Positions 5,568 through 36,324 are shown, counted from the first letter of the stretch. The stretch is 64,000 nucleotides of DNA from Candidatus Rifleibacteriota bacterium (GCA_015232575.1 JADFZL010000017.1:15689-79688), one strand, 5' to 3'. Notes: generated by a model not told the origin, from the sequence alone. Translations and numbers: made by a program.

Positions 5568-5568
5568 A

Positions 5569-7237: not shown

Positions 7238-7325
7238 AGCTCTCCATTTCTTTTAAATCACCGCGAAGAGCCAAATTTTCTGAGACAGAGCAATAAAACT
7301 CTACCTCTTGAATACTCGGCAAGAA

Positions 7326-9269: not shown

Positions 9270-9345
9270 AATATTCTATAAAAATTGATTATTTTTCTTC
9301 TTGTTTTTGGTAGAATGATATCCAGCATAAATCTTTTGCGGAGGG

Positions 9346-9898
9346 ATGAATGAGTTTCCAAACATCAGAAAATTAAACCATTTAATACAAGCAACGAAGG
9401 AACGGGTAAAACAAAATGAGTCAAAAATCTGCCAAGACCAGGATTGGCTATACGCGCTCAGCGTTTTTATTGCTGAGAATCTTGAGTTGCTGAATTCAGT
9501 AGAACAGCGTTTGCTGACCCTTGAGAAACTTCCACCTGAATCAGATGAACTCAAGGCTTTTCTGAATGATATATTCCGCCTTTTTCATTCTCTGAAGGGT
9601 GGTGCAGCATCTTTTGATCTGAATGTTACTAAAAGTATTACACATCTAAATGGAAAACATGCTGGACTTCTTCAGACGGAGCAGCGTAAAAGTTCAGCCC
9701 AGACATGTTGACCTGATGAATCTAACATGTGATTTCATAAGAAAAATATTAGGTTGCGTGTCAGAGGAGTATGAAGACAGTATCTTCCAGAGCGAATCTG
9801 AAAACATTTCCGCACTTACAAGAAGTTACAGCTTTGCTGTCACTTCGACCGAAAGAGAAATCTGGTATCTTCTACTACGGGGTAGCGCATGTTTTTAA
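9346..9898 (+). pseudogene. Stand-alone HPt-domain gene, paralogue of the N-terminus of the 12548 cheA, interrupted by a 1-nt frameshift
   Basis: ORF 9346-9711 (..DQDWLYALSVFIAEN..DIFRLFHSLKGGAASFDL..ITHL) and ORF 9650-9898 (MENMLDFFRR..VDLMNLTCDFIRKIL) together align colinearly with DEDWLQAFGVFLAET..GIFRLFHSLKASTAAFEL..MTHNAENLLDTFRK..IDLLCQTCDFLAKSL of the 922-aa CheA. The frame change lies at about 9645-9652 (CAT CTA A ATG GAA AAC). It could be a sequencing or assembly error rather than a true pseudogene. Confidence 0.55.
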
Positions 9899-9935
9899 CA
9901 TCCCTTCTGAGATCTCTCCCCTCGGTCGAGATGAC
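9839..9935. repeat. Intergenic inverted-repeat element, family 1 (arm consensus about GTCATYTCGAMCGAA..GAGA.ATCTC), copy A
   Basis: Left arm GTCACTTCGACCGAAAGAGAAATCT (9839-9863). Right arm GAGATCTCTCCCCTCGGTCGAGATGAC (9909-9935). The arms are imperfect reverse complements. Confidence 0.7.
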
Positions 9936-10066
9936 AACGAATGGTTAATGGGTTACAAAATTTAGGTGTTATTAAAAACCGATTTCTGGAAAAACTTATG
10001 AGAATATGCTATATTTCGCGGGTTGATATATTCTGAGTTAAATTCATTAATTTTTATTCAGGGGAG

Positions 10067-11137
10067 ATGAGAATGGATAGGAAGCTGCTGGAAAAACTTT
10101 CGAACAGTCTCGAAAATACAGATGAAACTACACGCATTTATGCTGCTGAAGATCTGGGATATGAAAAGTGCCTGGAAGCGGCTGAACTATTGCTGAACAG
10201 ACTTCCCCACGAGCAGTCTATTGCCGTAAGAGAAGCCATAAAAAGGGCTCTTGCTAACATTGATTCTGAAGACCTTGTCGAAAAATTAGCTGAACTTCTT
10301 GGCAACCAGGATGCTTTTATCAGAAACATGGCAGTAACGCACCTGAGAAAAGTTGGGTCAAAAAAAGCGAACTTTCTTCTCAAACACATGAAATCGGCCA
10401 CGGATCCTGATATCAGGAAGTTCATCCTTGATATCGCAATTGATTTTGAAGAAAAGACTGCCCACCCCTTTTTTGCAGAAGGACTTAAGGACCCGGACAT
10501 TAATGTTTTGATACGTGCAGTAGAGGGTTCTGGACAATTTCACTACTCTGACTTCAGAGAGAAAATTGAAGAATTCGTACAAAGTAGAAATGAACCGATG
10601 CTTTTAATGGCCTGTTTTGACGCTCTTTCCTCAATCGGTTCAGAGCAAACTCTTCCAGTAATTGAAAAGCGTTTTGGGGAATTCGAAAAAGTCAGAGAGT
10701 TTTACCTCAGACCAATGTTGAAAATATATGGAAAAGTTGGCAAAACTGATAATATTTCCCGACTTGAAAAAATCTGTCAATTGAAACCACATCTTACGGA
10801 CTTTGTTCTTTCGTCTGCCATTCTTCCGATTTTTTCAAGATTTTCAGAAGACCCAATACCGGAAACCATTTTAAGCATGATTCAGGAATCTGTTGAGAAA
10901 GAGCTGCCCGAAAAGGATAAATTAGATATATATTATCTGATCGGCTCAAGGCAAAAAAACCCAAAAATAAGAACGCTTATTGAGACCAGCCTCAACTCAA
11001 AGAATAGAATCAACAGACTTGGTGCTGCAATAGCTCTGTCAATGTTATCATCTGAAATTTCACGTGAGCTTATCAATAACCGCCTTAAAATCGAAAAAGA
11101 TCCAGAAGTAAAGGAGATGTTGCAACATGTCTTCTAA
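10067..11137 (+). CDS. HEAT-repeat protein
   Basis: 356 aa of repeated helical units with the HEAT/PBS-lyase-like signature (TRIYAAEDLGYEK.., AVREAIKRALANI, AFIRNMAVTHLRKVG, PDIRKFILDIA, RLGAAIALSML). Overlaps cheR by 11 nt. Confidence 0.7.
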   Translation: MRMDRKLLEKLSNSLENTDETTRIYAAEDLGYEKCLEAAELLLNRLPHEQSIAVREAIKRALANIDSEDLVEKLAELLGNQDAFIRNMAVTHLRKVGSKKANFLLKHMKSATDPDIRKFILDIAIDFEEKTAHPFFAEGLKDPDINVLIRAVEGSGQFHYSDFREKIEEFVQSRNEPMLLMACFDALSSIGSEQTLPVIEKRFGEFEKVREFYLRPMLKIYGKVGKTDNISRLEKICQLKPHLTDFVLSSAILPIFSRFSEDPIPETILSMIQESVEKELPEKDKLDIYYLIGSRQKNPKIRTLIETSLNSKNRINRLGAAIALSMLSSEISRELINNRLKIEKDPEVKEMLQHVF

Positions 11138-11966
11138 CACTGTATTATCCCAGGACGATTTCAACAAAATACGCGATTTGATTTGTGAAAGAACTGGCAT
11201 GTACTTTGATGACCGCAAGCTTTCGTTTCTCGAAAAGAGAATTCAGGACAGAATGAAAAAGCTTGGCATTGACACCTTCTTTAACTACTTCTTTAATATT
11301 AAATTCGGAGAAAACAGTACAGAACTTCAGTTTCTCATCGACATGATAACGACGAACGAAACATACATGTTTCGCGAATATGAACAACTTGAATCATTCG
11401 CAAATTCCTGTCTGCCGGAAGTACTTAAAGAAAAGAAAACACGTGGAAACAATGAAATAAAAATCTGGTCTGCAGGCTGCTCAACTGGCGAAGAGGCTTA
11501 TACCCTTGCGGTTATTTTACGGGAATGTCTTGAAGACATAGATCAATGGAATGTGTCTATTTACGCAACTGACATAGACACCAGCGTTCTGAAAAAATGC
11601 GAAGCGGCAATTTACTCAGAACGCTCGGTTAAAGAAATGCCGACCGAATATTTTGCAAGGCACATTAAGATCGTTCCGGGCGGTTATATGATTTCACCCG
11701 ACACGAAGAAATTGGTTAAACCAATGCACTTAAATCTTATGGACAGAGCATCCATGAGAGGAATGCGGGGTTTTGATTTTATTTTCTGCAGAAACGTTCT
11801 TATTTACTTCGATGACAATGGCAGAAAAGAAGTCGTAGACAATTTCTACAACAGCCTCAATCATAACGGGTACATTTTTCTGGGCCATTCTGAATCGGTC
11901 GGAAGAATTACAACTGCTTTCCGTCTAAAGAGAATGGGCGGATTCCTTGTTTACTGCAAGTCTTAA
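11127..11966 (+). CDS. cheR: Chemotaxis protein methyltransferase CheR
   Basis: 279 aa. N-terminal helical CheR domain (FNKIRDLICERTGMYF). SAM-binding IWSAGCSTGEEAYTLAVIL. IFCRNVLIYFD. Confidence 0.9.
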   Translation: MSSNTVLSQDDFNKIRDLICERTGMYFDDRKLSFLEKRIQDRMKKLGIDTFFNYFFNIKFGENSTELQFLIDMITTNETYMFREYEQLESFANSCLPEVLKEKKTRGNNEIKIWSAGCSTGEEAYTLAVILRECLEDIDQWNVSIYATDIDTSVLKKCEAAIYSERSVKEMPTEYFARHIKIVPGGYMISPDTKKLVKPMHLNLMDRASMRGMRGFDFIFCRNVLIYFDDNGRKEVVDNFYNSLNHNGYIFLGHSESVGRITTAFRLKRMGGFLVYCKS

Positions 11967-11986
11967 GCAAAGAAGGGAAATGATTT

Positions 11987-12373
11987 ATGAAAAAAATTCT
12001 TATTATTGATGATTCCCAAATGTCCCGGAATTACCATTCTGCTATTCTTCAGGAAAACGGCTATGAGATCCTTCAGGCTGCCGACGGCGCAGAAGGACTT
12101 GAAAAAGCCCTCATGAACCAGATTGATGCCGTAATGGTTGATATTAACATGCCTGTAATGGATGGCTTTGAATTCATCAGACGACTTCGCTGTGAAGAAT
12201 CGCATAAACTACTTCCTGTAATTATTATGTCTACGGAAAAATCTGATGAAGATGTAACCCAGGGTATGAACGCAGGTGCAAATTTATACCTGGTAAAACC
12301 AGTTGACCCCGATACACTGCTTGACAGCATTGAAAAAATGATACCTAAGTTTAAAAAACTTGAAGCAAAATAA
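11987..12373 (+). CDS. cheY: CheY-like single-domain response regulator
   Basis: 128 aa. KILIIDDSQMSR, DAVMVDINMPVMDG, VIIMSTE, ANLYLVKP. Confidence 0.85.
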   Translation: MKKILIIDDSQMSRNYHSAILQENGYEILQAADGAEGLEKALMNQIDAVMVDINMPVMDGFEFIRRLRCEESHKLLPVIIMSTEKSDEDVTQGMNAGANLYLVKPVDPDTLLDSIEKMIPKFKKLEAK

Positions 12374-12389
12374 TACATGGGTTTTTGCG

Positions 12390-12467
12390 GTCATTTCGAA
12401 CAAAGGAAAAAAGTCTGGAAACTTCTTATATAACCCTTCGGTGATCTCTCCCTTCTGTCGAGATGAC
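12390..12467. repeat. Intergenic inverted-repeat element, family 1, copy B
   Basis: Left arm GTCATTTCGAACAAAGGAAAAAAGTCT (12390-12416). Right arm GTGATCTCTCCCTTCTGTCGAGATGAC (12441-12467). A further partial arm GGTCGAAATGGC lies at 12475-12486. Confidence 0.65.
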
Positions 12468-12547
12468 ATTGAACGGTCGAAATGGCAGCAAATACACCTT
12501 AATTGCAGAGCAAATTGTTGAATAAAAGTGGAAAGGTCTGAAGCGTA

Positions 12548-15316
12548 ATGGTAAGAGACGAAGACTGGTTGCAGGCATTTGGAGTATTTCTCGCAGAAAC
12601 TCGTGAAATGCTTGTCGAAGTTGAGCCAGCTTTTATTTTCCTGGAAAAGGAATCACCTGACTCCGCCGATTTTAAAAAACAAATTGATGGAATATTCAGA
12701 CTTTTTCATTCTCTGAAAGCATCGACTGCTGCATTCGAACTTTTCAAACTGCGTGATATGACCCATAATGCAGAAAACCTTCTTGACACTTTCAGGAAAG
12801 TGCCCAGAAAGTTTTCTTCTGAACAAATTGATCTTCTTTGTCAGACCTGTGATTTCCTAGCTAAATCTCTTGATTATATAAGCAAAACTTTCTCTGACGA
12901 AAACCTGGCTGAGAAAGCAATTGAATATAATCAGAAATACATTGAGGAACTTGATAAAATCGGCAAAGCCCCAGGCACAGGTTCAGATACATCGCTCTCC
13001 AGCCCCGAAGCGTCTAAAACAACTTCGCCAACCACACCTAAAAAAGAATCAGTTTATTCAGAATTAAGGAAAACCATAGAATGCTTTTCTTCATCCAATT
13101 TAGCTGATACCTACTCTGAATTTGCAGAAACAATTCCAGGAGAGATTCTTGACGGATTTCTTCTGGAAGCTAAATCGCTGATCAAGAAAGCCAAAGCTGT
13201 TCTTTCCCAAATATCACCTGAAAATAAAGATATTTCCCCCCTGAAAGAAGCAAACAATGCGATCCATTCTTTCAAAGGACTTACTGACTTTTTAAATTTT
13301 TCTGCATTCAGTCAATTCTGCATAACTCTTCAAACATTCATCCGGAAAATTCTGACTCATAAAATTCTTCTCTCTGTAAGCACTTTCTCACTTCTGAAAA
13401 CTAATTTCGATGATATTGAACATCTTCTCACACGATTAAACAATAATCCGGTACTTGATAACGACAGACTTAATGCAATGACCGAAGCTCTGACTTCATT
13501 AACTTCTGAAGCAGAAGAGGAATCTGCCGCACTCTTAGATGTTAATGATACAGCAGAAACAATTGATAAGCAGAAAAAATCTATTGAGGGATTTGACATT
13601 CTGATCGACCAGCTTCCTGAAACGCTGCACGAAATGAAAATGGATGTCACACCTGAAATATCTGCCAAATTTCGAGAAGAGTCTGAAGCACTTTTTAAAC
13701 TGATTGACGCAGGAATTCTTAAAGCTAGTACAAAAAATGATCAGGCAGGAATAATAGAATCATTCAAAGCTTTCAGAGAATTTGGTGTCCTCGCAGGCTT
13801 TTTGGGATACTCAAAGCTCCTTGGAATAAGTACACTTGCTGAAAGCATAATAGAATCAGCAATAAAACGCCCTCTGGTTGAACTTATCTCTTTTTTCAAA
13901 ACAATTAATGCCACTGTAAACGAGCTTCGAAATTCCCTTGAACGACTAAAAAATGGAAAAGACGAGTCATTTGAACCCGCTTTTTCTGATGCAAAATCGC
14001 TGGAAATTATCTTCCGGGAATTTGAACAAACCGAAAAAGCTGCTGCTCCCTCAGATGCCCCTTCAGCTAAACAAACAGATAAAGACAAATTCGGCACTCC
14101 GACGATTAGAGTAGAAGAAACAAAAATTGATAAACTTATGGGTATTCTTGGTGAACTTTTTACAACCCGTGCATCTTTTCCACTTCTGGTAAATAAACTT
14201 CAATTGCACAATCAGAACTCTTTTGCCGAAGAACTTTCTATCTCAAGCAATGAAATTTCACGCCTTACCGAAGAACTTAGAGGAGTTCTTCTGTCAATAA
14301 GAATGGTAACCCTGAAATCTACTTTTCAGCGCATTCCGCGACTGGTAAGAGATCTCTCAAAAATGCTTAATAAGGAAATCAGGCTTGATTTGATCGGTGA
14401 AGCAACCGAGATGGACAAGAATTTAGTTGAAAAGCTCACAAATCCTCTTGTACATATCATCAGAAACGCAGTAGATCATGGAATTGAAATGCCTGAAGAC
14501 AGACTAAAAAAGGGTAAGCCTGCTGAAGGAAAAATAGTCGTAAGCGCAGAAACAGAGGGTTCAACAATTCTTGTAAAAATCTCAGATGACGGCAAGGGCC
14601 TTGACCCTGAATTCCTTAAAAGAAAAGCTGTTTCTAAAAAACTCATTTCACAGCAAACAGCAGACGCAATGAGCCACCGTGATGCACTGAATTTGATCTT
14701 CCTGGCCGGATTTTCAACAGCGGAAAAACTGACCGACGTTTCCGGCAGAGGGGTCGGCATGGACGTTGTCATGAATGATGTAAAATCGGTTCAGGGTTCT
14801 GTTCAGATGGACAGCTCTGTTGATGCAGGTTCTACTTTCACCCTTAAATTTCCAACCAGTATGATAATCTCTGATCTTATTCTCATCAAGTCGGCGCGGG
14901 ATGAATATCTTATACCAGTAGAAAATATTTCTGAACTGGTGAAGGTATCACCCGCTAATGTGCACATATTTCGCGGAAAAATGATGACACAAATTCGAGA
15001 TGCTGTTTATCCGATAATACACCTCGATGACCTTTTGTATGCCACCGGAAAAGATTCAGCAATAAATTATCAGAGACGCATCGAACAGATGGAAGAAGCT
15101 GATTTTCCTGCCACAATAATCGAATCAGGAAAAACAAGCTTTGTGATTGCGGTTGATCGCCTTGTAACTCAGGAAAAAGTTATGGTAAAGCCACTCGCAG
15201 AAGAGATTAGCTCACTGACTAAGATTTTTTCCGGTGCAGCAATAATGGGTGACGGACGTGTTGTGCTTGTAATTAATCCACGCGAACTCGCAAATCATTT
15301 CTGCAACTTCTTCTGA
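12548..15316 (+). CDS. cheA: CheA-type histidine kinase with three N-terminal HPt-like domains
   Basis: 922 aa. HPt1 FRLFHSLKASTAAFEL, HPt2 NAIHSFKGLTDFLNF, HPt3-like FKAFREFGVLAGFLGY (no His at the expected position). S/T/P-rich linker. N-box HIIRNAVDHGIE, G1 DDGKGL, G2 GRGVGMDVV. C-terminal CheW-like domain. Confidence 0.9.
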   Translation: MVRDEDWLQAFGVFLAETREMLVEVEPAFIFLEKESPDSADFKKQIDGIFRLFHSLKASTAAFELFKLRDMTHNAENLLDTFRKVPRKFSSEQIDLLCQTCDFLAKSLDYISKTFSDENLAEKAIEYNQKYIEELDKIGKAPGTGSDTSLSSPEASKTTSPTTPKKESVYSELRKTIECFSSSNLADTYSEFAETIPGEILDGFLLEAKSLIKKAKAVLSQISPENKDISPLKEANNAIHSFKGLTDFLNFSAFSQFCITLQTFIRKILTHKILLSVSTFSLLKTNFDDIEHLLTRLNNNPVLDNDRLNAMTEALTSLTSEAEEESAALLDVNDTAETIDKQKKSIEGFDILIDQLPETLHEMKMDVTPEISAKFREESEALFKLIDAGILKASTKNDQAGIIESFKAFREFGVLAGFLGYSKLLGISTLAESIIESAIKRPLVELISFFKTINATVNELRNSLERLKNGKDESFEPAFSDAKSLEIIFREFEQTEKAAAPSDAPSAKQTDKDKFGTPTIRVEETKIDKLMGILGELFTTRASFPLLVNKLQLHNQNSFAEELSISSNEISRLTEELRGVLLSIRMVTLKSTFQRIPRLVRDLSKMLNKEIRLDLIGEATEMDKNLVEKLTNPLVHIIRNAVDHGIEMPEDRLKKGKPAEGKIVVSAETEGSTILVKISDDGKGLDPEFLKRKAVSKKLISQQTADAMSHRDALNLIFLAGFSTAEKLTDVSGRGVGMDVVMNDVKSVQGSVQMDSSVDAGSTFTLKFPTSMIISDLILIKSARDEYLIPVENISELVKVSPANVHIFRGKMMTQIRDAVYPIIHLDDLLYATGKDSAINYQRRIEQMEEADFPATIIESGKTSFVIAVDRLVTQEKVMVKPLAEEISSLTKIFSGAAIMGDGRVVLVINPRELANHFCNFF

Positions 15317-15616: not shown

Positions 15617-16519
15617 CTACTTTTGAGATGCGGTTATCAGCAGCTTTTTCACTTCGTCGACAGATAAACCTGAATATTTGGAAATAATTTGTTCATCAAG
15701 GCCATCAGCGTGCATTCTAAGGGCGGATTCAAGTTTCTCCTTCGCAGCGCCTTTCTCAATACCTTTCTCAAGGCCTTCCTGAAAAGGAACTTCGTAATTT
15801 GATTCGTACATACTGGCCTGATAATGAAGATCATCTGAATAACGCTCATAAATTCGGCGCTCTTCATCAGATAATTTCATGATATCAAAAACTTCCTTTG
15901 CTTTCATTATGCCTTTTGCTTTAAAATCGCTTTTTATTTCCTCGTTTTTGAGAAAATACATCCATTCATCGAGTGTGTTCCTGGCGATGTCATCGAAACT
16001 GTTTACCCTCAAAAGATAATACTCTGGAAAAATCTGGCAAGTAAGTTCTTTATTAAAAAGCTTTTTCTGGAGCTTGTTAAGCTGAAGCTCATCTTGTTTG
16101 TACAATCCTCTAAATGAGGTAGTACCATGGTATATGTAATCAGAACCTTGTCCAAAGTTGAAATAGAGTATGCTGACCGAGAAAACTTTTACAACTTCGG
16201 AATATTTACTTCCTTCAGAAAGATGTTCAACAACGCTTTTTGAAACTCCGTAAAGAATGCGTTGAAGAAAATCAAATTCCCTCTCATACTGAACTTCTAT
16301 TATTACAATTTCATTCTTGCTGTTCTTAACCTTCAGATCCAATCTGTTTTGTTTATCTTTTTCGGTTTCCTTATTGCTTTCGCTCTCAAGAATCTCTACA
16401 ATTTTTACATCCTCTTTCAACAATTCAGAAAGAAAACCTTCAAGAATTTCAAAATTGGCTTTACTACGCAAAAGCCTCTTTAACGCCCAGTCAAAGCTTA
16501 TGAGTTTTCGTTTGGACAT
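15617..16519 (-). CDS. Rpn-family (YhgA-like) PD-(D/E)xK recombination-promoting nuclease / putative transposase
   Basis: 300 aa. N-terminal LISFDWALKRLLRSKANFEILEGFLSELL...RLDLKV..IVIIEVQYE matches the conserved Rpn/Transposase_31 nuclease core as I remember it. Helical C-terminal half. Confidence 0.7.
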   Translation of the reverse strand: MSKRKLISFDWALKRLLRSKANFEILEGFLSELLKEDVKIVEILESESNKETEKDKQNRLDLKVKNSKNEIVIIEVQYEREFDFLQRILYGVSKSVVEHLSEGSKYSEVVKVFSVSILYFNFGQGSDYIYHGTTSFRGLYKQDELQLNKLQKKLFNKELTCQIFPEYYLLRVNSFDDIARNTLDEWMYFLKNEEIKSDFKAKGIMKAKEVFDIMKLSDEERRIYERYSDDLHYQASMYESNYEVPFQEGLEKGIEKGAAKEKLESALRMHADGLDEQIISKYSGLSVDEVKKLLITASQK

Positions 16520-26416: not shown

Positions 26417-26460
26417 ACCTGATGCCTGCCGAAAATTCATCACCGCAAAGAAATTGAAAG

Positions 26461-26500
26461 AAGAGAAGAGAAGAGAAGAGAAGAGAAGAGAAGAGAAGAG
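26461..26500. repeat. Pentanucleotide microsatellite (AAGAG)x8
   Basis: Eight perfect tandem AAGAG units at 26461-26500, 45 nt downstream of the methyltransferase stop. Confidence 0.95.
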
Positions 26501-26594
26501 AAAACAAAAGAAAAGAAGTGATTTTTTTCCGCAGATTACGCAGATTTTTCAAGATATTAGAACAGCAAATCATGGAAAATGAGTCACAAACTCT

Positions 26595-28056: not shown

Positions 28057-28155
28057 GTCATCTCGACCGAAGGGAGAGATTTCAGAAAAGTCCTGTTAAG
28101 TCATGTACAACCTCGAAGTAAAAGCTGAGAGATTTCTCCCTTTGGTCGAAATGAC
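28057..28155. repeat. Intergenic inverted-repeat element, family 1, copy E
   Basis: GTCATCTCGACCGAAGGGAGAGATTTC (28057-28083) and GAGAGATTTCTCCCTTTGGTCGAAATGAC (28127-28155) flank a 43-nt spacer. Confidence 0.75.
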
Positions 28156-28230: not shown

Positions 28231-28290
28231 TAAAAATCCGTGTTAGTTCGGTGTATTTCATGGTTAAAAATCAGTTTCTTTTGACGGCAC
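28231..28290. repeat. Family-2 repeat (CCGTG-type), copy 2
   Basis: AAAATCCGTGTTAGTTCGGTGTATTTCATGGTTAAAAATCAGTTTCTTTTGAC aligns with 26757-26818. It overlaps the last codons and stop of the 28271 GTPase gene (..SAVKRN*). Confidence 0.6.
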
Positions 28291-29926
28291 TCGACAAGTT
28301 TTCTGAAAGACGATTAACTTCATCGCGCCATGCTTTTATCGGCTGCACAATTCGCTGTGAAGCCTTATCAGTAAAATGAGTAATTAATTCCTGCGGAAGA
28401 AAAATCTGCCTTCCGATTTTTCTGGGCAGCCAGAATGCCGATTGCAGATAGCATACAAGCCATAGAGCAAGCCCGCCACCCAGAAACATTCCGGCTGATG
28501 GCTCACGTGCATTAAAAAGACAGACAAGAAAGTACTTCAACAGCAAAAGAAGTATCACAGCCGGAAGGAGATTCAGAAGCAATCCTTCCCATGATCTGGA
28601 AATAGTTTCGCCAAGTTGTTTTTTCAGAATTGCAGCCGGCTCGTCTCCGATAAGACGCAAAGGTTTACTGTTTAAAAGGAATCGTTTTTTCAGAATCGTG
28701 TATTCAATATCAGCCGCATCAGATTCTTCAGTCAGAAGGGTCACGAATTCATCTGCATTTTTTTCAATTCTATCTATTGCGGTTTTTCCGAATAAACCAG
28801 CTGTCTTGTCAATGGAAGGAATTGTAATTGTAAAAGTTGAAGTAAGCGCTCTTACAGCAACAATAGCCTTGAGATATATTCCAAACGGACCGCTGATACC
28901 GCTTATGGCATTCAGCGTCATTCTTCCTTCAAGACCCTGAGATGTCTCTGACCATATTTCTGTCAGCACTTCTGCAATCTCTCTTTCAAGAATGCCAAAT
29001 TGCTCTTCAGCAAGAATAACTAATTTCTCTGCAAATTTCACCATTTCCTGAATACGGCAATTGCTTCCGACAAGTTCGACGGTCTCCCGGAACATCGCAT
29101 CCAGATTTTCCTCGCTGATTCTTTTAATAAGCGCCTGGTCAAGTCGCTTGTACAAGAAGTTCTCAAGAGCCTTAAATTCTCCGGCAGGTCCAACTGTTGT
29201 ACCCTGTTTATTCATAAATGCGTTGTAAGAAGAGATTCCAAAAATCGGAATCTCTTCTCCGTCAGGAGCTTTCAAATTAAAATCTGCAATTTTTCTCAGA
29301 AAGTCCTTTTTGACAGTTTCTGAATATGGTATTCCTTCATCAATTTTATTAAAAATAAAAACCGTTCTTCGAAAACCCACTTCATGCGTCAGAATCTCAT
29401 ATAGAGGACTCGAATCATATTTCTGCGTTGTCAGAACGCACATGACAAGATCGGCTCTGATAAGCAATTCTCTGAATACCTGATGATGAATTGTCACCGA
29501 ACCATCAATATCAGGGGAATCAATAATGATGATTCTCTCAAGAGCTAATTCATTATGAACAATTATCAGATCATCTTTTGTCAAAACACCCTGAAGCCGC
29601 AGACGCGCCTGCCCCTCGCGCGTGGAATGAACATAAACTATTGGTCTGCTCGTAAAACAGGCTTTGGCAGACACTTCGGAAATCTGCTTTCCCGCCAGAG
29701 CGTTCAACAGAGTCGATTTTCCAACTTTTGTACCACCCAGCATAACCGCCATAAGGGTGTCTGAAACTGCATCTTTGCGTTCAGAAAGCATTTCAACGCG
29801 CTTCAGTGTTTCTTCAAGAATCGCACCTTTCGGTCTGCCTGAAAGTTGACGACTTTCATCAATCAACTGTCTGAGCTCACTAATTTCAAACACGCTGCAG
29901 CCTCCAGTCGTTCTCAAGTTCATCAA
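28271..29926 (-). CDS. Membrane-anchored P-loop GTPase (dynamin-like / YeeP-like), paralogue 2
   Basis: 551 aa. G1 GGTKVGKSTLLNALAG, G2-like FTSRP, G3 IIIDSPDIDG, G4 FNKIDE. C-terminal hydrophobic segments (LLNLLPAVILLLLLKYFLVCLF, FLGGGLALWLVCYL). The likelier start is the GTG at 29893 (GGAGG 6 nt upstream). Either start overlaps the upstream gene. Confidence 0.75.
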   Translation of the reverse strand: MMNLRTTGGCSVFEISELRQLIDESRQLSGRPKGAILEETLKRVEMLSERKDAVSDTLMAVMLGGTKVGKSTLLNALAGKQISEVSAKACFTSRPIVYVHSTREGQARLRLQGVLTKDDLIIVHNELALERIIIIDSPDIDGSVTIHHQVFRELLIRADLVMCVLTTQKYDSSPLYEILTHEVGFRRTVFIFNKIDEGIPYSETVKKDFLRKIADFNLKAPDGEEIPIFGISSYNAFMNKQGTTVGPAGEFKALENFLYKRLDQALIKRISEENLDAMFRETVELVGSNCRIQEMVKFAEKLVILAEEQFGILEREIAEVLTEIWSETSQGLEGRMTLNAISGISGPFGIYLKAIVAVRALTSTFTITIPSIDKTAGLFGKTAIDRIEKNADEFVTLLTEESDAADIEYTILKKRFLLNSKPLRLIGDEPAAILKKQLGETISRSWEGLLLNLLPAVILLLLLKYFLVCLFNAREPSAGMFLGGGLALWLVCYLQSAFWLPRKIGRQIFLPQELITHFTDKASQRIVQPIKAWRDEVNRLSENLSSAVKRN

Positions 29927-31751
29927 ACAACAGCATTAAAGAAGTTTCTCTGTCTTCGCCCGTTATCAGCAGGGAATCAACGGGCTGAATTATCTTTTCA
30001 ACGGCATGTCTGAAAATAGCACGTCTGCACCCGGAGAATCCGTCCTTTGCCTTTCTGATAAAAGGTTTGCCACTTATTTCCTGCGCCAGTTTTAAAAACC
30101 CTTCCGGCAAAGCATCTTCGAGTTTTTTGTATACTGGAAGCGCTGTAATTGAAAGTAAATATTCAGAAATCCCCGGAAGGAGAGCAAAAGCATGAACAGA
30201 AAAAATTACAGCCCCGATCGCTGCCAGCGCCGAAACACCTGGTACAGCATATTTTATTGTATCCATAAAATTCGGATTTTCTGAACAGAACCTTTCAAGC
30301 TCCCCTTCAAATGTTGAGAGAATAGGCTCAATTTCAGTTTTTCTTTTCTCTTCATAAATAGTACACAATTCTTTTTTTATCGTAACAGAATCGGGAAAAT
30401 CAATTATCTTCAATCTATCATGAAGTCTGGAAGCAAATTCCGACGTTCCCCGTTCAGCTTTTCTTCTTATTCTTTCACGCAACTGATGCATAACAGATGC
30501 AATCTTTTTTGCACCAGCATCAAAATCCACATTATCACGCTCCAATGCAGGCTCTGCAGTCAAAGCATCATCTGATAAAGCCTTCCCTGTTACCCTGCTG
30601 AACAATGAAGAAACTACATTTGAAGCTGATTTAAAACCATTACTGATCGTATCACCGACCGAACTTTTCAATCTTGGACCAATTACTCTGAGCATTACAG
30701 AATTCAGCTCAAAACGCATCTCGTGTCCCGGAAGATCGTGAACAGGTCTGAACAAATCTTCTTCAAGATGGTTTTTTATATACGTATTGAGTCTTTCACA
30801 TGATTGCCTGCGCTCTGAATAACATTTTAATCCTTCAGACAATTTTTCCCTGCAAATTTTCAATGCATATTCACCTGACTTTATGCGTCTTTCAGAAATA
30901 TTCGCGCTTAAACTTTGAATTTTTTCACATAGATTTTCTACAGCAACTTCCGGTAACAATTCATCTCTTATCGGACATTCATCAATCACATAAAAATATC
31001 TTTCGTTATGAGGCCAGCGTTGATCGTAGGTCTTCCTCATATCTTCGACTGCCTCTGAATGCCTCGGTACTGACTGATTAAAAACATCTATGCGTGGAAT
31101 ACCCAACGCCATGGCTTTTTCAAGAAAAACCACCCCGGACTGATCGTTATATTTCTGTGCAGTTGTAACCCAAACTGCAATATCCGCAAATTCAAGTGCT
31201 AAATTTGCCTGACCCAGACAATTATCATTCGCACTGTCTACATCTGGAGTATCAAGGAAGATCTGATTATGCGTCGAATCTGCCGTTTCAGATATTGAAT
31301 TTTTTCCGCAGGATAAATCAGGTTTAACAGTGGGAGCATAAATGACTTTTTCTGAACATTTCACTTTTGAATCAAGCGATTCCGGAAATGAAAAGTTCAG
31401 CTTCCAATCACTTCGGAATTTAAAAAAATCTTCCAGCGCACTCTGATCGCCTTCAGCAATAAGATGTCTCGTAAATCCAGCAGTGACACCGGCTGGCGAG
31501 ATTATTTTTCGAAATATGGAATTTATAAGAGTTGATTTTCCAGTGTTTGTACCACCCCAGAAAACCAGCATCGGCGCAGCTTCAAGATTTCCTGCACTCT
31601 GCGGAATCAGCCTGTTTTTTATTAAATGCAGAGTAAATTCAAAAACACTTTTATCCAGGTCTCCAAATGCGGCATCATTCCTGCGTAGTTGCTGAATCAG
31701 TTCGCCCAGCATACCACACATGGCGTACCCTTTTTCGGTGAAGGAAGACAT
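29886..31751 (-). CDS. Membrane-anchored P-loop GTPase (dynamin-like / YeeP-like), paralogue 1
   Basis: 621 aa. G1 WGGTNTGKSTLINSIF, G2-like GFTRH, G3 IFLDTPDVDS, degenerate G4 (VFNQS). Hydrophobic hairpin AVPGVSALAAIGAVIFSVHAFALLPGI near the C-terminus. Confidence 0.7.
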   Translation of the reverse strand: MSSFTEKGYAMCGMLGELIQQLRRNDAAFGDLDKSVFEFTLHLIKNRLIPQSAGNLEAAPMLVFWGGTNTGKSTLINSIFRKIISPAGVTAGFTRHLIAEGDQSALEDFFKFRSDWKLNFSFPESLDSKVKCSEKVIYAPTVKPDLSCGKNSISETADSTHNQIFLDTPDVDSANDNCLGQANLALEFADIAVWVTTAQKYNDQSGVVFLEKAMALGIPRIDVFNQSVPRHSEAVEDMRKTYDQRWPHNERYFYVIDECPIRDELLPEVAVENLCEKIQSLSANISERRIKSGEYALKICREKLSEGLKCYSERRQSCERLNTYIKNHLEEDLFRPVHDLPGHEMRFELNSVMLRVIGPRLKSSVGDTISNGFKSASNVVSSLFSRVTGKALSDDALTAEPALERDNVDFDAGAKKIASVMHQLRERIRRKAERGTSEFASRLHDRLKIIDFPDSVTIKKELCTIYEEKRKTEIEPILSTFEGELERFCSENPNFMDTIKYAVPGVSALAAIGAVIFSVHAFALLPGISEYLLSITALPVYKKLEDALPEGFLKLAQEISGKPFIRKAKDGFSGCRRAIFRHAVEKIIQPVDSLLITGEDRETSLMLLFDELENDWRLQRV

Positions 31752-31757
31752 TTGGCT

Positions 31758-32798
31758 CTACTTAACTCTGGACATCGTTATACCGGCGTGATTAACTGTA
31801 AGCTCAACCGAACACGGAATTGAAAGCTCTTTCTGAGCGGTAAATTCAGCGACATAAACATTATTAATAATTTTAGCAATTTTCGGAAACCAGGTATTCA
31901 AGTCTGAGCTTTGAGGCGTATAAATAAAATAGCCGTCCGTCTCTTCTGATATCTTCTTGAGAGTTTCAACCTTCAGCCAGCCGAAACCGAGCATGAACGC
32001 CGAAACACTATGGGCTTTCATTCTGCGTAGAATCTCATTTTGTACAATAGAACTGGCGTTATCATTACCGTCTGTAGTTACAATCAAAAGACGCAGATTC
32101 GGCTGGCTCTGAACACTTGAAAGCCCTTTATCCATTGCGTCATACAGTGCTGTACTGTCACCAATCGGATAACTATCACAGACAGATGTTTCAAGTTTTG
32201 TTTTGTCTCCGGTGAATGATGTAATTTCGTCTACACTGCTCGAAAATTTGAAAACATTTGCCTTAAAGGGAAACAATACACCATTTATCAGACCAGAGTA
32301 ATATTTTTTTATGTTCTCAATATCTTCCTTGAACATACTTCCAGAATAATCCATTATTCCTGAAAAGAAAAGTCGATCATTTGAAAGGTGATTTGCAATA
32401 TGCAGCGGTGTCAGCTTTTCAATTATCGCTGGTTTCCTGCTCATTCCAATATCGGAAGCCTGAATAGTAATTTCAGATGGCTGAATAGACAATACCGGCT
32501 CAGAATTCGAATCTGTAATTGAAAAGAACATTGCATAACGCTTTTCAGAAAGTTTTTCAACCCGATGTATTCTTAATGCAGACTTTAGATTATCTTCAGG
32601 TTTTGTATTTGGTCTGAATCTGTTAAGAACCGACAGATATCGACGAAACGGTTCTGTAAAAGAATTAGATGCGCCCCACGATGTTCCGAATATTGAATAC
32701 AAAAGTGCAAGTAACAGAAGAAAGAGAATAAAAATTATCAGCAGACAGCTTCGATAATGAATTCTCAGCGGCGTACTTCTCGGAGCTACTTCAACCAT
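31758..32798 (-). CDS. Membrane-anchored von Willebrand factor A (vWA) domain protein
   Basis: 346 aa. N-terminal TM helix (CLLIIFILFLLLLALLYSIFG). vWA domain with a MIDAS-type DxSxS (MDYSGSM), TALYDAM and TTDGNDN. Confidence 0.75.
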   Translation of the reverse strand: MVEVAPRSTPLRIHYRSCLLIIFILFLLLLALLYSIFGTSWGASNSFTEPFRRYLSVLNRFRPNTKPEDNLKSALRIHRVEKLSEKRYAMFFSITDSNSEPVLSIQPSEITIQASDIGMSRKPAIIEKLTPLHIANHLSNDRLFFSGIMDYSGSMFKEDIENIKKYYSGLINGVLFPFKANVFKFSSSVDEITSFTGDKTKLETSVCDSYPIGDSTALYDAMDKGLSSVQSQPNLRLLIVTTDGNDNASSIVQNEILRRMKAHSVSAFMLGFGWLKVETLKKISEETDGYFIYTPQSSDLNTWFPKIAKIINNVYVAEFTAQKELSIPCSVELTVNHAGITMSRVK

Positions 32799-32856
32799 TT
32801 TTCATCACCATTATTTTTTGAATATCAATTTTTACAGATTATCCTTCATACTGAAA

Positions 32857-35800
32857 TCAGTTTCCAGTGTTAATACGTTGACTGAAAATAGATTCATGCG
32901 AGTCAGAAATATCCGTCAGAACTCTGTAAATTCCCTTCTTTATAGCCAGCAGTTCATCACTTGCAGGACTGACATCATGGCTTGTACGTATTTCTCCTTC
33001 TATCATATCCTCAATCTGCCTGACCTTATCACGGAAAAGCGGAAGATACTTCTTGATAACCGCATTCTGCTGCGGCAAAGACAAAGTATTCCAGCCTTCC
33101 TTGTACACAGTATTTATGAGATACACACCCATCGTATTGTTTTTCAGATAATCGAATAATTCCGGAAGAGTGCGCCCCATATATTGAGGCTTTTCCTGCT
33201 GATACAACAATTCAAATTGTACAAGTTCTTTATTGTATTCGATTCCGTGCGAACCTTTCGCTTCATCTGCAAATAATTCATATCTCAGAAGCAGATAAAC
33301 AAGATATAGCTGCTCAAGCGTCTTTGCAGGAATCAGGCCAAAACTCGACCATAGAATCGGGTATCCATCACTTGCAAGAACTGCATGACAGTTAATCTTC
33401 TGATGATTTTTCCGATAAAGATGCTGCCAGTGAGTTACTGAGCTAATGTTATATGGACAGATTCCATGCAGAGTCTGAAGCAGGCTGATTTCAAACTGGT
33501 TGCGTGTCGGAGCAACAGTAATGGTAATTCCGCCCTTCTGCAGCGCCTGTTTAATTTCATCGGCAAACTTACTGTTTTCATCTGAAACACCGAGAGTTAC
33601 GATATTCATTCTCTGCGGCTGATTGTTTCCGCGATCATTGATTGTCATGAGCGGTGTAGACTGATTCATCATGCTTTCAATAAGGCTTTTCTTGAAGCCT
33701 TTACGCACAGTTTCCTTCCACTGAATGAACTCTTCTATTCCGCCAATCATGCGACCCTTGACCCACTCAGAACTGTAGTTCACGATATCAGTCTCAAGCG
33801 TATTACTATTCGGATTAGTATATGATTCCCAGTTCTGTTCCAAATTAATTTTAACAAGGAAATCTTTCTCAATATCATTATTTGAGAGATCGCCGAGAAG
33901 ATACTTATAGAAAGGCTCCACATCGCGTTCTTCAAAGATATATGTTCTAACAAAAGCCTGAACTCTTGAATAAGGTTTAATCTTGTCAAGACATGCTTCG
34001 TAAGAGCGTTCAATAATACCATTTTTGGAAATCAAATCAAGCTTTCTGCAGAGTTCTTCGACCTGTCTTCTGATCGACTGAACGTGAAGTGATAGAAATT
34101 TAAGGTAATCTGCAGCGCAGGTAAGGCAGAACCGTTCATACTCAAGTTCAACAGCCTCTCCGGCTTCCTTTTCAAGTTTGGAATATTCTTCGTTAATATT
34201 TGTCAGAGAGAAAAAGCTGCCTATTTCCATAAGCTTTCCGACAACACCAAAGCACGAATTGAGCTTTGCTGATAGTGCATCTCTGATAACGACGTATTCA
34301 CGCTGCTCTTTTAGAAGCCGTCCCTTAAGTTCTTCTTCCTTGCGGCTCAGGACATCTCTCGGAAAACGCGACAGATACTTATCAAGCGATTCAAGGAATG
34401 ATACGGCAATCAGCGCACCCTGATCGGGATCATTGATGATCTGAATGATTTTTGCTTTAACCGTTTTTGCGGCTTCAACAGCTGCTTTTTCAAAGGAAAT
34501 CTTAACCTTGGCGCGAATATCTTCCTTTTTTACTTTGGTTTTATCCATTTCGCTTATTTTTCTGAGAATATAAGCAGAAGCTGATTCGCTCGGAAGTTGA
34601 TTCGGCTCTGTCCTTTGTGTGTGATATTGAGGGTTATCCCAGTATTGGGCTCTCGGAATAGCCTTTTTCGACATGATGAAAAGATCTTCAGGAGTCAGAT
34701 TAAGGTTTTCTGGCTGAGATTCCACAAAATCGTTGACCATGCCATCAATACTGATACGATCAGCAGATAATTTCAACCAATAGGTAAGATCCATTGAAAG
34801 TTTGTATGCATAAAGTTCTGAAATGATATCAACCGGATAAAAGAAACTTTTGTACCCGGATGTACTGAAACACTTCAGTTGCTTTCCTTCGAGGTCAGAA
34901 GAAAGCTGTCCAAGAACCTGCGAAGCATTATCAAGCTGTGAATTCTGAGCTTCGCGGATATTGGTTGCAAGTTTGGTAAAAATCAGTTCTGAAGCGATAC
35001 TGAAATATGTTGGAATATCGTCAAGGGTGCTTGTTCCAAGAAGATAGCACTGATCAAATGGTGACTCATCTGCAATTGTACCGTAAGTGGTCGGATCATT
35101 GCTTTTGCCAAGCGGACCGTAATTAACCATGAATTTATTCCGGCGATCCTGATTCAAAATATCTTTTGCGCTTTTTGAAGGCTGAAACTTTTCTTTTGCC
35201 ATGTAGTAAAACATTTCTACCAGAGAAGAGTAGCCGTTTGCTTCAAGACGCCCGGTAGAATTGATGTTCGGATCAATAGCTATACTGGTAAAAGCATCAG
35301 GAGTAAGCTGAATGCCCACCATCTGCGGCTTGCCCCGTCCTCCGGAAAGCTGATAATATGCCATCTTCATCAGATATGCAATATCCAGAAACATTCCGGC
35401 ACCTGATCCGCCGCACAGAGAGCCTATTACATAGAATTCCGGAGTGAGAATCTGTCCCTGCTTGTTGGTTATTGGTACAATAATGTCTTCCTGGTTGACA
35501 TTTTTTCTGGCAATTATTTTGCTGATTTTGCTTTTAATCTGCTGATAAATTTTTGCAATATCAACGAAAAGCCCAAATCTGCCTGTAAACCTGTATTGGT
35601 GAGCTCCCTGGCTTATCTGACCAATGTGGTTCTTCAGTTTCATCGGGAACCACTCGTTCAGATATGTATAAGTGTCAGTATCAAAATTTCCAGTTATCTG
35701 GTTGGCATTCTGAACATTTATCTGGTGGTATTCTTCTTCACGAAGTTTTGAACCCTCAATCTTTTCCTCTTTTTTATCAAAAAGATCTGTATCAATACAT

Positions 35801-35982
35801 AAAAGGTCTATGAAATCAGGCAAGGAATTTTTCTGATCAGACGAATGTCTGTATGCTTCTTTAATGATAGGACTGGAAAGAAATGTTTCCTTGAAATTCA
35901 TCAGAACTTTTTTTCCGGTTCCGCCAAGACCAACAATCAATGCAGGATTCAAAGCCAGACGATGCTCAAAACTCACTGTCAT
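32857..35982 (-). CDS. Giant tubulin/FtsZ-like GTPase-domain protein (Tubulin_2-like) with a long helical C-terminal region
   Basis: IVGLGGTGKKV (T1-like loop) and GSLCGGSGAGMFLDIAY (T4 GGGTGSG-like loop) appear in the N-terminal ~450 aa. I place the start at the ATG at 35982 (AAGGAG 9 nt upstream, MTVSFEHRLALNP..). The ORF-track start at 36144 would translate GC-rich hairpins. Confidence 0.65.
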   Translation of the reverse strand: MTVSFEHRLALNPALIVGLGGTGKKVLMNFKETFLSSPIIKEAYRHSSDQKNSLPDFIDLLCIDTDLFDKKEEKIEGSKLREEEYHQINVQNANQITGNFDTDTYTYLNEWFPMKLKNHIGQISQGAHQYRFTGRFGLFVDIAKIYQQIKSKISKIIARKNVNQEDIIVPITNKQGQILTPEFYVIGSLCGGSGAGMFLDIAYLMKMAYYQLSGGRGKPQMVGIQLTPDAFTSIAIDPNINSTGRLEANGYSSLVEMFYYMAKEKFQPSKSAKDILNQDRRNKFMVNYGPLGKSNDPTTYGTIADESPFDQCYLLGTSTLDDIPTYFSIASELIFTKLATNIREAQNSQLDNASQVLGQLSSDLEGKQLKCFSTSGYKSFFYPVDIISELYAYKLSMDLTYWLKLSADRISIDGMVNDFVESQPENLNLTPEDLFIMSKKAIPRAQYWDNPQYHTQRTEPNQLPSESASAYILRKISEMDKTKVKKEDIRAKVKISFEKAAVEAAKTVKAKIIQIINDPDQGALIAVSFLESLDKYLSRFPRDVLSRKEEELKGRLLKEQREYVVIRDALSAKLNSCFGVVGKLMEIGSFFSLTNINEEYSKLEKEAGEAVELEYERFCLTCAADYLKFLSLHVQSIRRQVEELCRKLDLISKNGIIERSYEACLDKIKPYSRVQAFVRTYIFEERDVEPFYKYLLGDLSNNDIEKDFLVKINLEQNWESYTNPNSNTLETDIVNYSSEWVKGRMIGGIEEFIQWKETVRKGFKKSLIESMMNQSTPLMTINDRGNNQPQRMNIVTLGVSDENSKFADEIKQALQKGGITITVAPTRNQFEISLLQTLHGICPYNISSVTHWQHLYRKNHQKINCHAVLASDGYPILWSSFGLIPAKTLEQLYLVYLLLRYELFADEAKGSHGIEYNKELVQFELLYQQEKPQYMGRTLPELFDYLKNNTMGVYLINTVYKEGWNTLSLPQQNAVIKKYLPLFRDKVRQIEDMIEGEIRTSHDVSPASDELLAIKKGIYRVLTDISDSHESIFSQRINTGN

Positions 35983-36001
35983 ACAGAGATTCTCCTTTTT
36001 C

Positions 36002-36097
36002 GAGAGGGGGCGCTTTTTAGAGAGGGGGCACGCGCCCCCTCTCGCCGGTCGAACAAGTTCGACCGTCTCACTCCCCGCGGTCGAGCACTTTGTGCTC
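36002..36097 (-). promoter_or_regulatory. GC-rich structured leader: three consecutive hairpins with a duplicated G5/C5 arm
   Basis: GAGAGGGGGC (36020-36029) pairs with GCCCCCTCTC (36034-36043) to give a perfect 10-bp stem. A second copy, GAGAGGGGGCGC at 36002-36013, could pair with GCGCCCCCTCTC at 36032-43 instead. CGGTCGAAC-AA-GTTCGACCG lies at about 36047-36066. GAGCAC-TTT-GTGCTC lies at about 36083-36097. Confidence 0.45.
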
Positions 36098-36116
36098 TCC
36101 TTTATGAGGCACCCGC

Positions 36117-36236
36117 GCACTTGATCACTCAGGCACTCGAGCACTTTATCGCTTTATCGCTCCATCACTCAACCACTCAATCACTCAATCACTCAATCAC
36201 TCAATCACTTGATCACTTGATCACTTGATCATCTCG
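36117..36236. repeat. Tandem octanucleotide array, 15 units (consensus TCACTYRA)
   Basis: Read unit by unit: gcacttga tcactcag gcactcga gcacttta tcgcttta tcgctcca tcactcaa ccactcaa tcactcaa tcactcaa tcactcaa tcacttga tcacttga tcacttga tcatctcg. A period of 8 is not a multiple of 3, so the array is non-coding. Confidence 0.95.
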
Positions 36237-36294
36237 GCGCAGTTGGGCGGTTTTTGCTTTCCCAAAATATAAAATCCTTTGCCATCAAATGAAG

Positions 36295-36324
36295 AGTATA
36301 TTCTTAATATATTCTCAATGTCAA
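36295..36324 (-). promoter_or_regulatory. Candidate sigma70-type promoter for the tubulin-like operon
   Basis: On the minus strand: TTGACA (36324-36319), an 18-nt spacer, then TATACT (36300-36295). If real, the octamer array and hairpins lie in a ~300-nt 5' leader. Pattern match only. Confidence 0.3.

Follow-up and report, generated by a model that had tools for sequence, protein, structure and literature searches.

The 64,000-nt stretch of Candidatus Rifleibacteriota bacterium DNA analysed here (GCA_015232575.1 JADFZL010000017.1:15689-79688; hereafter the window, in whose coordinates positions are given) carries on its minus strand, between 28271 and 35982, four co-directional and tightly packed genes coding for a giant tubulin-like protein, a von Willebrand factor A (vWA) protein and two paralogous GTPases. 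Judging by its sequence, the locus appears to be the Riflebacteria form of the FtsZl1 (Tubulin_2)-vWA module, accompanied in the same operon by a tandem pair of GTPases of the bacterial dynamin-like protein (BDLP)/mitofusin type. The open reading frames (ORFs) span 32857..36144 (gene 1 in its longest form), 31758..32798 (gene 2), 29886..31751 (gene 3) and 28271..29926 (gene 4), all on the minus strand. We place the start of gene 1 at the ATG at 35982, preceded at a distance of 8 nt by AAGGAG (the lengths of its homologues range over 1040-1051 aa), and that of gene 4 at the GTG at 29893, which is preceded by GGAGG. The junctions are, in order, a gap of 58 nt, a gap of 6 nt and an overlap of genes 3 and 4 by 8 nt, or by 41 nt from the alternative TTG start at 29926. 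The original prediction made on this DNA had described the same packing, gaps and overlaps, all of which are recovered from the ORFs, and had quoted sequence motifs for the four products, each of which is present where expected.

Gene 1 (32857..35982, minus strand) encodes a protein of 1041 aa that matches the Pfam family Tubulin_2 (PF13809) over profile positions 1-353 of 356 (E = 8.9e-55), its score of 186.8 bits being far above the cut-off of 27; its membership in the Tubulin_2/FtsZl1 family is certain. The two motifs that had been taken for the T1 and T4 nucleotide-binding loops of the tubulin/FtsZ superfamily, IVGLGGTGKKV at residues 16-26 and GSLCGGSGAGMFLDIAY at residues 187-203, contain glycines that are invariant in an alignment of 30 homologues (G18, G20, G21 and G23 in T1; G191, G192, G194 and G196 in T4), as is the D64-T65-D66 triad; this alignment includes cyanobacterial members only 19-21% identical. 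The protein begins with a tubulin/FtsZ-like GTP-binding domain (~8-460), continues with antiparallel coiled-coil helices (~468-670) and ends in alpha/beta and alpha domains; hydropathy analysis revealed no transmembrane (TM) segment in it. In an AlphaFold2 model (mean pLDDT 72, with low-confidence inserts), the N-domain is Rossmann-like; three very long helices, of 30-64 residues, lie between ~486 and 653, and more domains extend up to residue 1034.

The full-length model, searched against the PDB with Foldseek, recovered FtsZ (4dxd), CetZ1 (4b46) and gamma-tubulin as the matches covering the N-domain, at probabilities of 0.96-0.99, E-values of 0.02-0.2 and TM-scores normalised by target of 0.35-0.44. 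The assignment of gene 1 to the tubulin/FtsZ superfamily in the original prediction is supported. A sequence-profile search of the PDB with gene 1 found no FtsZ, tubulin or other solved relative, and in a Pfam scan at E<0.1 Tubulin_2 was the sole family matched, the canonical domains (PF00091, FtsZ_C and Tubulin_C) being absent. A direct sequence link from gene 1 to a solved FtsZ or tubulin was accordingly rejected, the PDB profile search bringing up nothing relevant and an hhalign comparison reaching the T4 loop alone. Placement in the tubulin/FtsZ superfamily is carried by the family-level work of Makarova and Koonin (2010; PMC2875224), who defined FtsZl1 and obtained an HHpred E-value of 1.4e-5 to the superfamily; the structural match found here is supportive, if undecisive. 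A later paper, citing Makarova and Koonin, treats the Tubulin_2 proteins as a divergent “FtsZ-like” outgroup. A ClyA-type pore-forming toxin was also considered for the helices at ~470-700, which match AhlC with Foldseek probabilities of 0.97-0.99; this candidate was rejected, as the E-values are at least 6e-3 and the root-mean-square deviations 15-34 Å, and the likeness is probably the generic similarity of long-helix bundles.

Gene 2 (31758..32798, minus strand) codes for a 346-aa protein that hydropathy, a Pfam VWA match (E = 1.7e-11) and an alignment of 16 orthologues identify as a membrane-anchored vWA protein, as had been predicted. An N-terminal MVEVAP is followed by one TM helix (~18-38), a linker/beta region and the vWA domain. 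The metal-ion-dependent adhesion site (MIDAS), made up of D149-x-S-x-S, T216 and D243 (motifs MDYSGSM, 149-155, and TTDGNDN, 241-247), is intact and conserved (DxSxS, T, D) across the 16 orthologues, and almost no variation is seen in residues 1-6, MVEVAP. The N-terminal flank of the TM helix has the greater net positive charge, and we therefore infer a bitopic protein with its N-terminus in the cytoplasm and its vWA domain in the periplasm.

Genes 3 (29886..31751, minus strand; 621 aa) and 4 (28271..29893, minus strand; 540 aa) encode GTPases that are paralogous at 19-21% identity. Both match Pfam MMR_HSR1 (E = 1e-6 and 3e-8, respectively); against Dynamin_N, with its cut-off of 27 bits, gene 4 scores 27.2 bits and gene 3 a sub-threshold 19 bits. 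Nucleotide-binding families matched by the two in the Pfam scan at E<0.1 were limited to MMR_HSR1, Dynamin_N, RsgA_GTPase and a sub-threshold nSTAND6. Gene 3 bears GGTNTGKST (66-74) and DTPD (167-170) and has no NKxD; gene 4 bears GGTKVGKST (53-61), DSPD (125-128) and NKID (182-185), the last being the G4 motif that had been noticed in this paralogue only. Alignments extend these differences to the respective families: the G1 motif GGTxxGKST, an invariant switch-I threonine, the DxPD form of G3 and a QKY motif are common to both types, while NKxD is present in the gene-4 types and absent from all gene-3 orthologues. The DxPD motif, with an aspartate in place of the canonical glycine, is invariant in every aligned member of this dynamin-like family. 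Gene 3 has one hydrophobic stretch of ~30 aa (502-530), and gene 4 has two (437-460 and 469-490).

The AlphaFold2 model of gene 4 (mean pLDDT 87) comprises a large G domain, a helical stalk, a TM hairpin (437-460/469-490) and a C-terminal helix. Its Foldseek list consists entirely of the dynamin superfamily, with BDLP (E = 8e-12), IniA (E = 3.6e-10), the Campylobacter jejuni DLP (E = 4e-9) and LeoA (E = 5e-8), and also OPA1, Drp1, C. jejuni DLP1/2 and SynDLP; the structural relationship to BDLP and LeoA that was to be looked for was thus found for this gene. Compared with mitofusin-1, the model has a TM-score of 0.54 normalised by target. Searched against the PDB, a gene-4 profile aligns with mitofusin-1 over query residues 48-321 (E = 2.5e-9), and a profile of gene-3 orthologues gives long alignments only to mitofusin-2 and mitofusin-1 (E = 6e-8), apart from which the two profiles produced short P-loop matches to Era and Der and weaker long alignments to the C. 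jejuni DLP, IniA and SynDLP. Both GTPases thus belong to the dynamin superfamily and to its BDLP/mitofusin type, gene 4 by model and profile and gene 3 by profile, which bears out the paralogous dynamin-like pair of the original prediction.

Word-index searches had returned few relatives of these GTPases, and rarity was considered as a property of the pair; an exhaustive profile search showed the family to be large (1,737 representative clusters at E<=1e-30, rising to 5,447 when the threshold is relaxed to E<=1e-10), and the rarity claim was therefore dropped. Members are mostly full length, at 520-680 aa. Ten relatives that were looked up had no specific name or a generic one, such as “GTPase domain-containing protein”. 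This DxPD dynamin-like family, sampled members of which include Gemmataceae (Planctomycetes), is large and yet lacks a specific NCBIfam or Pfam family name.

Upstream of gene 1 lies a sigma-70-type promoter of the operon, TTGACA-N18-TATACT (36295..36324, minus strand), which agrees with the consensus at 11 of 12 positions. The same element, TTGACA-N17/18-TATACT, is found ~45 nt 5' of the gene-1 ATG in eleven orthologous loci (including L001, L006, L007, L013-L016, L018, L023 and L029). In the window, the leader between promoter and start codon (35983..36294, minus strand), which ends in the AAGGAG ribosome-binding site, is unusually long, ~310 nt as against ~45 nt, because it contains a genome-specific insert with an 8-nt unit, AGTGATTG, repeated 12.8 times at 36124-36225 and an 18-nt direct repeat of 1.9 copies at 35995-36029. 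These repeats are absent from all orthologous leaders, and the 8-nt repeat is found nowhere else in the window. The repeat-laden leader reported earlier is thus real; its use as a mark of a defence-like setting does not hold, the insertion being specific to this genome. A regulatory RNA in the leader was likewise considered and rejected, as there are no Rfam matches and the repeats are missing from the orthologous leaders. Beyond gene 4, a consensus scan gave a weak, low-confidence terminator-like hairpin (28127..28140, minus strand) in the convergent intergenic region.

To place the operon in context, we compared ~30 Riflebacteria-type and ~55 distant Tubulin_2 loci, scoring all ORFs with hidden Markov models (HMMs) of the local families. 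Gene 1 has 52 homologues at 58-85% identity, mostly full length, in Riflebacteria-labelled and unlabelled metagenome assemblies, and the named ones are almost all Candidatus Riflebacteria/Rifleibacteriota. Four arrangements were observed among the relatives. The order tubulin-like, vWA, GTPase, GTPase is shared by the window and nine other loci (L001, L007, L009, L013-L017 and L029). Three arrangements lack the GTPases: tubulin-like, vWA, TPR, Hfq (L006, L018-L020 and L023); the same with an opposite-strand insert after the tubulin-like gene (L008, L022 and L027); and tubulin-like, TPR, Hfq with no adjacent vWA gene (the lineages of L003/L004/L028, L025 and L026). The four-gene synteny originally predicted therefore stands for one clade, and fails in sister clades that have no GTPases and in three lineages that also have no adjacent vWA gene. 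In the GTPase-bearing arrangement, a gene for a TPR protein of ~1000 aa comes next in L001, L009, L014, L016 and L029, followed by hfq in L001, L009, L014 and L029, the contig of L016 ending within the TPR gene. This TPR protein has an N-terminal signal peptide; its gene and the directly following hfq are the neighbours that accompany the tubulin-like gene most constantly across Riflebacteria (L001 17820-21210; L003, L006, L008, L009 and others).

A neighbour-joining tree built from gene 1 unites the GTPase-bearing loci in one clade, which fits a single acquisition of the GTPase pair by a tubulin-like/vWA/TPR/Hfq cluster that was already in place. L007, the closest relative of the window, has lost the TPR-Hfq neighbours, as has the window itself. 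In the distant Tubulin_2 loci (~50-55), there is no GTPase of the kind of genes 3 and 4; vWA domains occur in 10 of 128 proteins encoded in their operon-like neighbourhoods, along with TPR proteins, periplasmic binding proteins, HepT/MNT pairs and two HSP70s. Four of these loci (L038, L039, L064 and L078) carry two same-strand Tubulin_2 paralogues, adjacent in three and one gene apart in L064, which recall the two-tubulin Firmicutes systems of Kaur et al. The closest of the named relatives, L001 (JADFYG010000034.1), comes from isolate nDJH6bin19, named in the style of a survey of metagenome-assembled genomes of magnetotactic bacteria, and Riflebacteria are listed among the phyla with magnetotactic members. 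A link with magnetosomes was nonetheless rejected, as the window has no magnetosome-type genes and the cluster is also found in metagenome contigs from biogas fermenters and activated sludge.

The family to which gene 1 belongs was predicted by Makarova and Koonin (PMC2875224) to form a membrane-remodelling system with vWA proteins, “a distinct GTPase” and OmpA proteins. The FtsZl1 proteins described there consist, as here, of an N-domain resembling FtsZ, a long coiled coil and a C-domain of alpha helices, ~1050 aa in total, and their operons share with ours an adjacent MIDAS-bearing vWA gene, GTPase genes and several membrane-associated components. The bacterial partner GTPases of 2010, in contrast, are typically not membrane-associated and are sometimes fused to a DnaJ-like Cys-rich domain, and dynamin is never mentioned, whereas the Riflebacteria operon has a paralogous dynamin-like pair with C-terminal TM hairpins and no OmpA or protein-kinase genes; the constant neighbours in its relatives are the secreted ~1000-aa TPR protein and Hfq. 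Kaur et al. (2020; PMC7159879) in turn described paired DO-GTPases with GAP1, accompanied in Firmicutes and Actinobacteria by tubulin plus coiled-coil and TM-vWA proteins, and read them as conflict systems. Two paralogous TRAFAC-class GTPases, the fusion of tubulin and coiled coil, and a TM-vWA protein predicted to face outward are common to those systems and to the present locus.

The dynamin-like pair itself was compared with Nostoc BDLP, C. jejuni DLP1/DLP2, mycobacterial IniA/IniC, Streptomyces DynA/DynB, LeoABC of enterotoxigenic Escherichia coli and the mitofusins. With these it shares tandem overlapping paralogues, a large G domain with a helical stalk and a membrane-inserting element (Foldseek E-values of 1e-8 to 1e-11), and the order of G domain, stalk, TM hairpin and C-terminal helix in gene 4 mirrors the mitofusin topology. 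It differs from them in its shorter products (540-621 aa), the DxPD in G3, a paralogue without G4, Dynamin_N scores at or below threshold, and its embedding in a tubulin-like/vWA operon. TM-anchored vWA proteins are also encoded with TPR proteins and an NTPase in the Bat/MoxR-type envelope operons; the NTPase there is a MoxR AAA+ ATPase, and here the NTPases are tubulin-like and dynamin-like. In the literature searched, an FtsZl1-vWA-TPR cluster that contains a dynamin-type pair is nowhere described. The tubulin-vWA(-GTPase) core was already predicted in 2010, and tubulin with vWA and paired GTPases was catalogued in 2020, so that the “undescribed system” of the original prediction was overstated; the new part would be the dynamin-type pair within the cluster.

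The original prediction had further held that the surroundings of the operon suit an accessory or defence-like role, which the comparison of loci does not support. The flanks in the window are ordinary: they include chemotaxis genes, KaiC, a xanthine-dehydrogenase-type enzyme, a beta-CASP nuclease, DedA, an N6/N4 methylase, a secretin, a type II/IV secretion ATPase, a polysaccharide deacetylase, an M48 peptidase, PhoU, an aminoacyl-tRNA synthetase, PPDK, MMPL and PhoH, and no marks of a defence island were found among them. Neighbours in the relatives comprise pantothenate genes, an M23 peptidase, S-adenosylmethionine synthetase, HU, DivIVA, MreB, Hfq and a polysaccharide deacetylase. When the window is compared with L007, the identity of the gene-1 proteins is 85%, close to that of the aminoacyl-tRNA synthetase (90%) and well above a DUF4097 protein (61%); the corresponding values are 65% for the vWA protein of gene 2, 58% for gene 4 and 47% for gene 3. 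The conservation of gene 1, the promoter and the neighbours fit a constrained, constitutively expressed cellular component, unlike a fast-turnover immune module.

We accordingly favour, at a probability of roughly one half, the reading that the locus encodes a constitutive cytoskeletal module for the envelope or for membrane remodelling, to which the dynamin pair was recruited in one clade, and that it is not an immune system. The GTP-driven, membrane-associated machine that had been proposed for it is a reasonable one, and the same proposal was made by Makarova and Koonin in 2010. Starting from the observed family identities, motif conservation, synteny, clade distribution and promoter, a mechanism may be proposed whose topology, protein contacts, polymerisation and membrane activity would be as follows. 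Transcribed from the strong promoter conserved across orthologous loci, the operon would supply a cytoplasmic 1041-aa tubulin-like protein that binds GTP via its T1 and T4 loops and assembles, aided by its long coiled coil, on the inner face of the cytoplasmic membrane. The bitopic vWA protein, with its MVEVAP tail in the cytoplasm and its MIDAS-bearing vWA domain in the periplasm, would couple this scaffold to the envelope, and the secreted ~1000-aa TPR protein co-encoded in most relatives could be the periplasmic partner available to the vWA domain. The dynamin-like paralogues, one a complete GTPase and the other without G4, would form a heterotypic pair, with both anchored by their C-terminal hydrophobic hairpins, and would carry out GTP-dependent tethering, fusion, fission or repair of membranes at sites marked by the scaffold. 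There is precedent in hetero-oligomeric bacterial dynamin pairs that tether and fuse membranes (PDB 5owv; PMC6162298) and in the Streptomyces dynamin-like proteins DynA/DynB, which a preprint describes as acting on FtsZ-based division (bioRxiv 10.1101/2025.06.23.661029).

A number of observations weigh against this reading, the first set of which concerns the scaffold and its anchor. The full-length gene-1 model, searched with Foldseek against the PDB, gave nothing at E<=1e-3, FtsZ/CetZ appearing at E = 0.02-0.08, and the hhalign alignment of the gene-1 profile with E. coli FtsZ, confined as it is to the T4 loop, has an E-value of 0.06. Makarova and Koonin (PMC2875224) could not identify counterparts of T6-H7 in FtsZl1, and canonical polymerisation-coupled hydrolysis is therefore not established; polymerisation of FtsZl1 is doubtful. 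The predicted periplasmic position of the gene-2 vWA domain derives from a charge bias that is modest. In the literature searched, there is no experiment on any FtsZl1 protein. The second set concerns the association of the parts: neither the window nor L007 has the TPR and Hfq genes; in the sister clades there is no GTPase pair, and the vWA and TPR genes are immediate neighbours; an opposite-strand insert of ~5 kb splits the two GTPase genes in L013 and L015; the evolution of the GTPases is much more rapid than that of gene 1 (47-58% as against 85% identity between the window and L007); and tandem pairs of the same GTPase family stand alone, with no Tubulin_2 nearby, in L010, L093 and L094. 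The GTPase pair is thus dispensable to, and separable from, the tubulin-like/vWA core. The stand-alone pairs, in which the genes overlap in tandem, are known from these three distant loci of other organisms, whose context was visible (L094 is from Nocardiopsis). The insert in L013 (16394-22065) and L015 (16430-21376) codes for a PMT_2-like membrane glycosyltransferase, a 730-aa protein without a Pfam match and a zinc-ribbon protein.

An alternative is that two independent modules, FtsZl1-vWA(-TPR) and an ordinary stand-alone dynamin-like pair for membrane repair or fusion, were joined by one insertion in a Riflebacteria ancestor and are now co-transcribed without cooperating. The large size of the GTPase family, as counted at E<=1e-30, the lack of such a GTPase in the distant Tubulin_2 loci, the absence of the pair from the sister clades, its splitting by the insert, and the single gain to which the gene-1 tree points all favour this alternative, as do the stand-alone pairs of L010, L093 and L094. 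It has to contend with the retention of the pair across the clade between the vWA and TPR genes, with gaps or overlaps of a few nt, even where identity has fallen to 29% for gene 3 and to 69% for gene 1; with the position of the pair in the middle of the cluster rather than at its edge; and with the membrane-associated or membrane-proximal nature of all the products. We consider it somewhat unlikely, though it is the main rival to the remodelling module with a recruited pair.

That module would also have to be told apart from an NTP-dependent conflict system of the type of Kaur, Burroughs, Iyer and Aravind (2020), in which the GTPase pair would serve as a switch, the vWA protein would be the sensor or a co-chaperone, and the effector would be the polymerising tubulin-like protein, or from an Eleos/LeoABC-like dynamin pair. 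The resemblance to the GTPase-centred systems of PMC7159879, with their tubulin plus coiled-coil and TM-vWA proteins, speaks for this, and among the PADLOC models gene 4 matches LeoBC (30 bits, E = 7e-8) and LeoA (22 bits, E = 1.6e-5); these matches are weak and represent similarity at the level of the superfamily, gene 3 reaching at most 18 bits in the P-loop region only and genes 1 and 2 having no match to the PADLOC models. A conflict role is also suggested by the HepT/MNT toxin-antitoxin pairs near some distant Tubulin_2 genes, and by a relative that also counts against our preferred reading: in L005 (1-23114), a 40%-identical tubulin-like protein and a vWA protein on the opposite strand are encoded amid four TIR-domain proteins, a PIN gene and a vWA-HATPase-STAS protein. 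L005 is the sole defence-island-like context among the loci examined. The defining partner GAP1 is absent, no GAP1-like family being matched by the four products in Pfam at E<0.1 (with the presence of GAP1 models in the Pfam copy used not confirmed), and the locus also lacks an FNIII-repeat protein and HSP70; the GTPases are dynamin-like, with DxPD and not the Walker B glutamate. For want of GAP1 and of that glutamate, membership in the DO-GTPase/GAP1 systems was rejected. The locus has no effector domain and no variable module, and a gene 1 that is inherited with the lineage, at a conservation close to that of an aminoacyl-tRNA synthetase, shows the reverse of the turnover that an arms race brings. 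No relatives were found in viral contigs, and the viral structure library gave nothing useful. Compared with the Firmicutes and Actinobacteria systems, context and conservation here look like those of a core cellular function. A defence system as the leading explanation was hence rejected on the weak PADLOC matches, the lack of viral-contig relatives and the ordinary chromosomal neighbours, and is kept as an unlikely rival to a constitutive membrane-remodelling module.

A more specific cellular role would be that of a dedicated machine for division or envelope constriction, with FtsZl1 as the cytoplasmic scaffold, the dynamin pair for scission, and the vWA and TPR proteins coupling it to the periplasm and outer membrane. 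An FtsZ-dynamin partnership is familiar from plastid division, and the phylum-wide conservation of the cluster, its strong promoter, the FtsN-like layout of the vWA protein and the presence of DivIVA and MreB near it in some relatives are in line with such a role. Among bacteria, the Streptomyces pair DynA/DynB mentioned above is an example of such a partnership. Yet ftsA, ftsQ, ftsW and mur genes adjoin the cluster in no locus examined, the dynamin pair is missing from half of the phylum, and FtsZl1 usually coexists with canonical FtsZ (PMC2875224), on which nothing was found for Riflebacteria in the literature searched. We regard a dedicated division machine as very improbable. A broader proposal can be put forward as speculation and with little confidence: Riflebacteria FtsZl1 might be a core cytoskeletal element, passed on vertically, of a machine that spans the envelope and includes, besides cytoplasmic FtsZl1, the vWA protein as its bitopic part and the TPR protein in the periplasm, to which the mitofusin-like pair was recruited in one clade, and which might act in division, envelope constriction or internal membrane biogenesis.

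Elsewhere in the window, the region at 1423-15316 is dense in signalling genes, with two CheA-type kinases, CheW, CheR, a KaiC homologue, a HEAT-repeat protein and several response regulators, and is followed by a PD-(D/E)XK transposase-like gene (15617-16519). An AGAAG microsatellite of 12 units lies at 26459-26518, between the genes for the N6/N4 DNA methylase and a transglutaminase-elicitor-like protein. The window as a whole gave no match to Rfam and contains no tRNAs.

Few branches of the tubulin/FtsZ superfamily are as divergent as FtsZl1/Tubulin_2, which was predicted in 2010 to head a membrane-remodelling machine. The Riflebacteria locus offers an unusually clean case for its study, with core-like conservation of gene 1, a defined promoter, a compact cluster and recognisable partners in the vWA protein, the dynamin-like pair and the secreted TPR protein. 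Were the two modules independent, the locus would be an ordinary member of two known, experimentally uncharacterised families. If, on the other hand, the reading favoured here is true, a tubulin-superfamily scaffold would be physically linked to dynamin-superfamily remodellers, which would bear on the origin of their cooperation in organelle division; such a link would also help in choosing between the cytoskeletal reading of tubulin-vWA-GTPase operons by Makarova and Koonin and their reading as conflict systems by Kaur et al. Under the core-machine proposal, the locus would represent a free-living bacterial counterpart of the FtsZ-plus-dynamin logic by which organelles divide.

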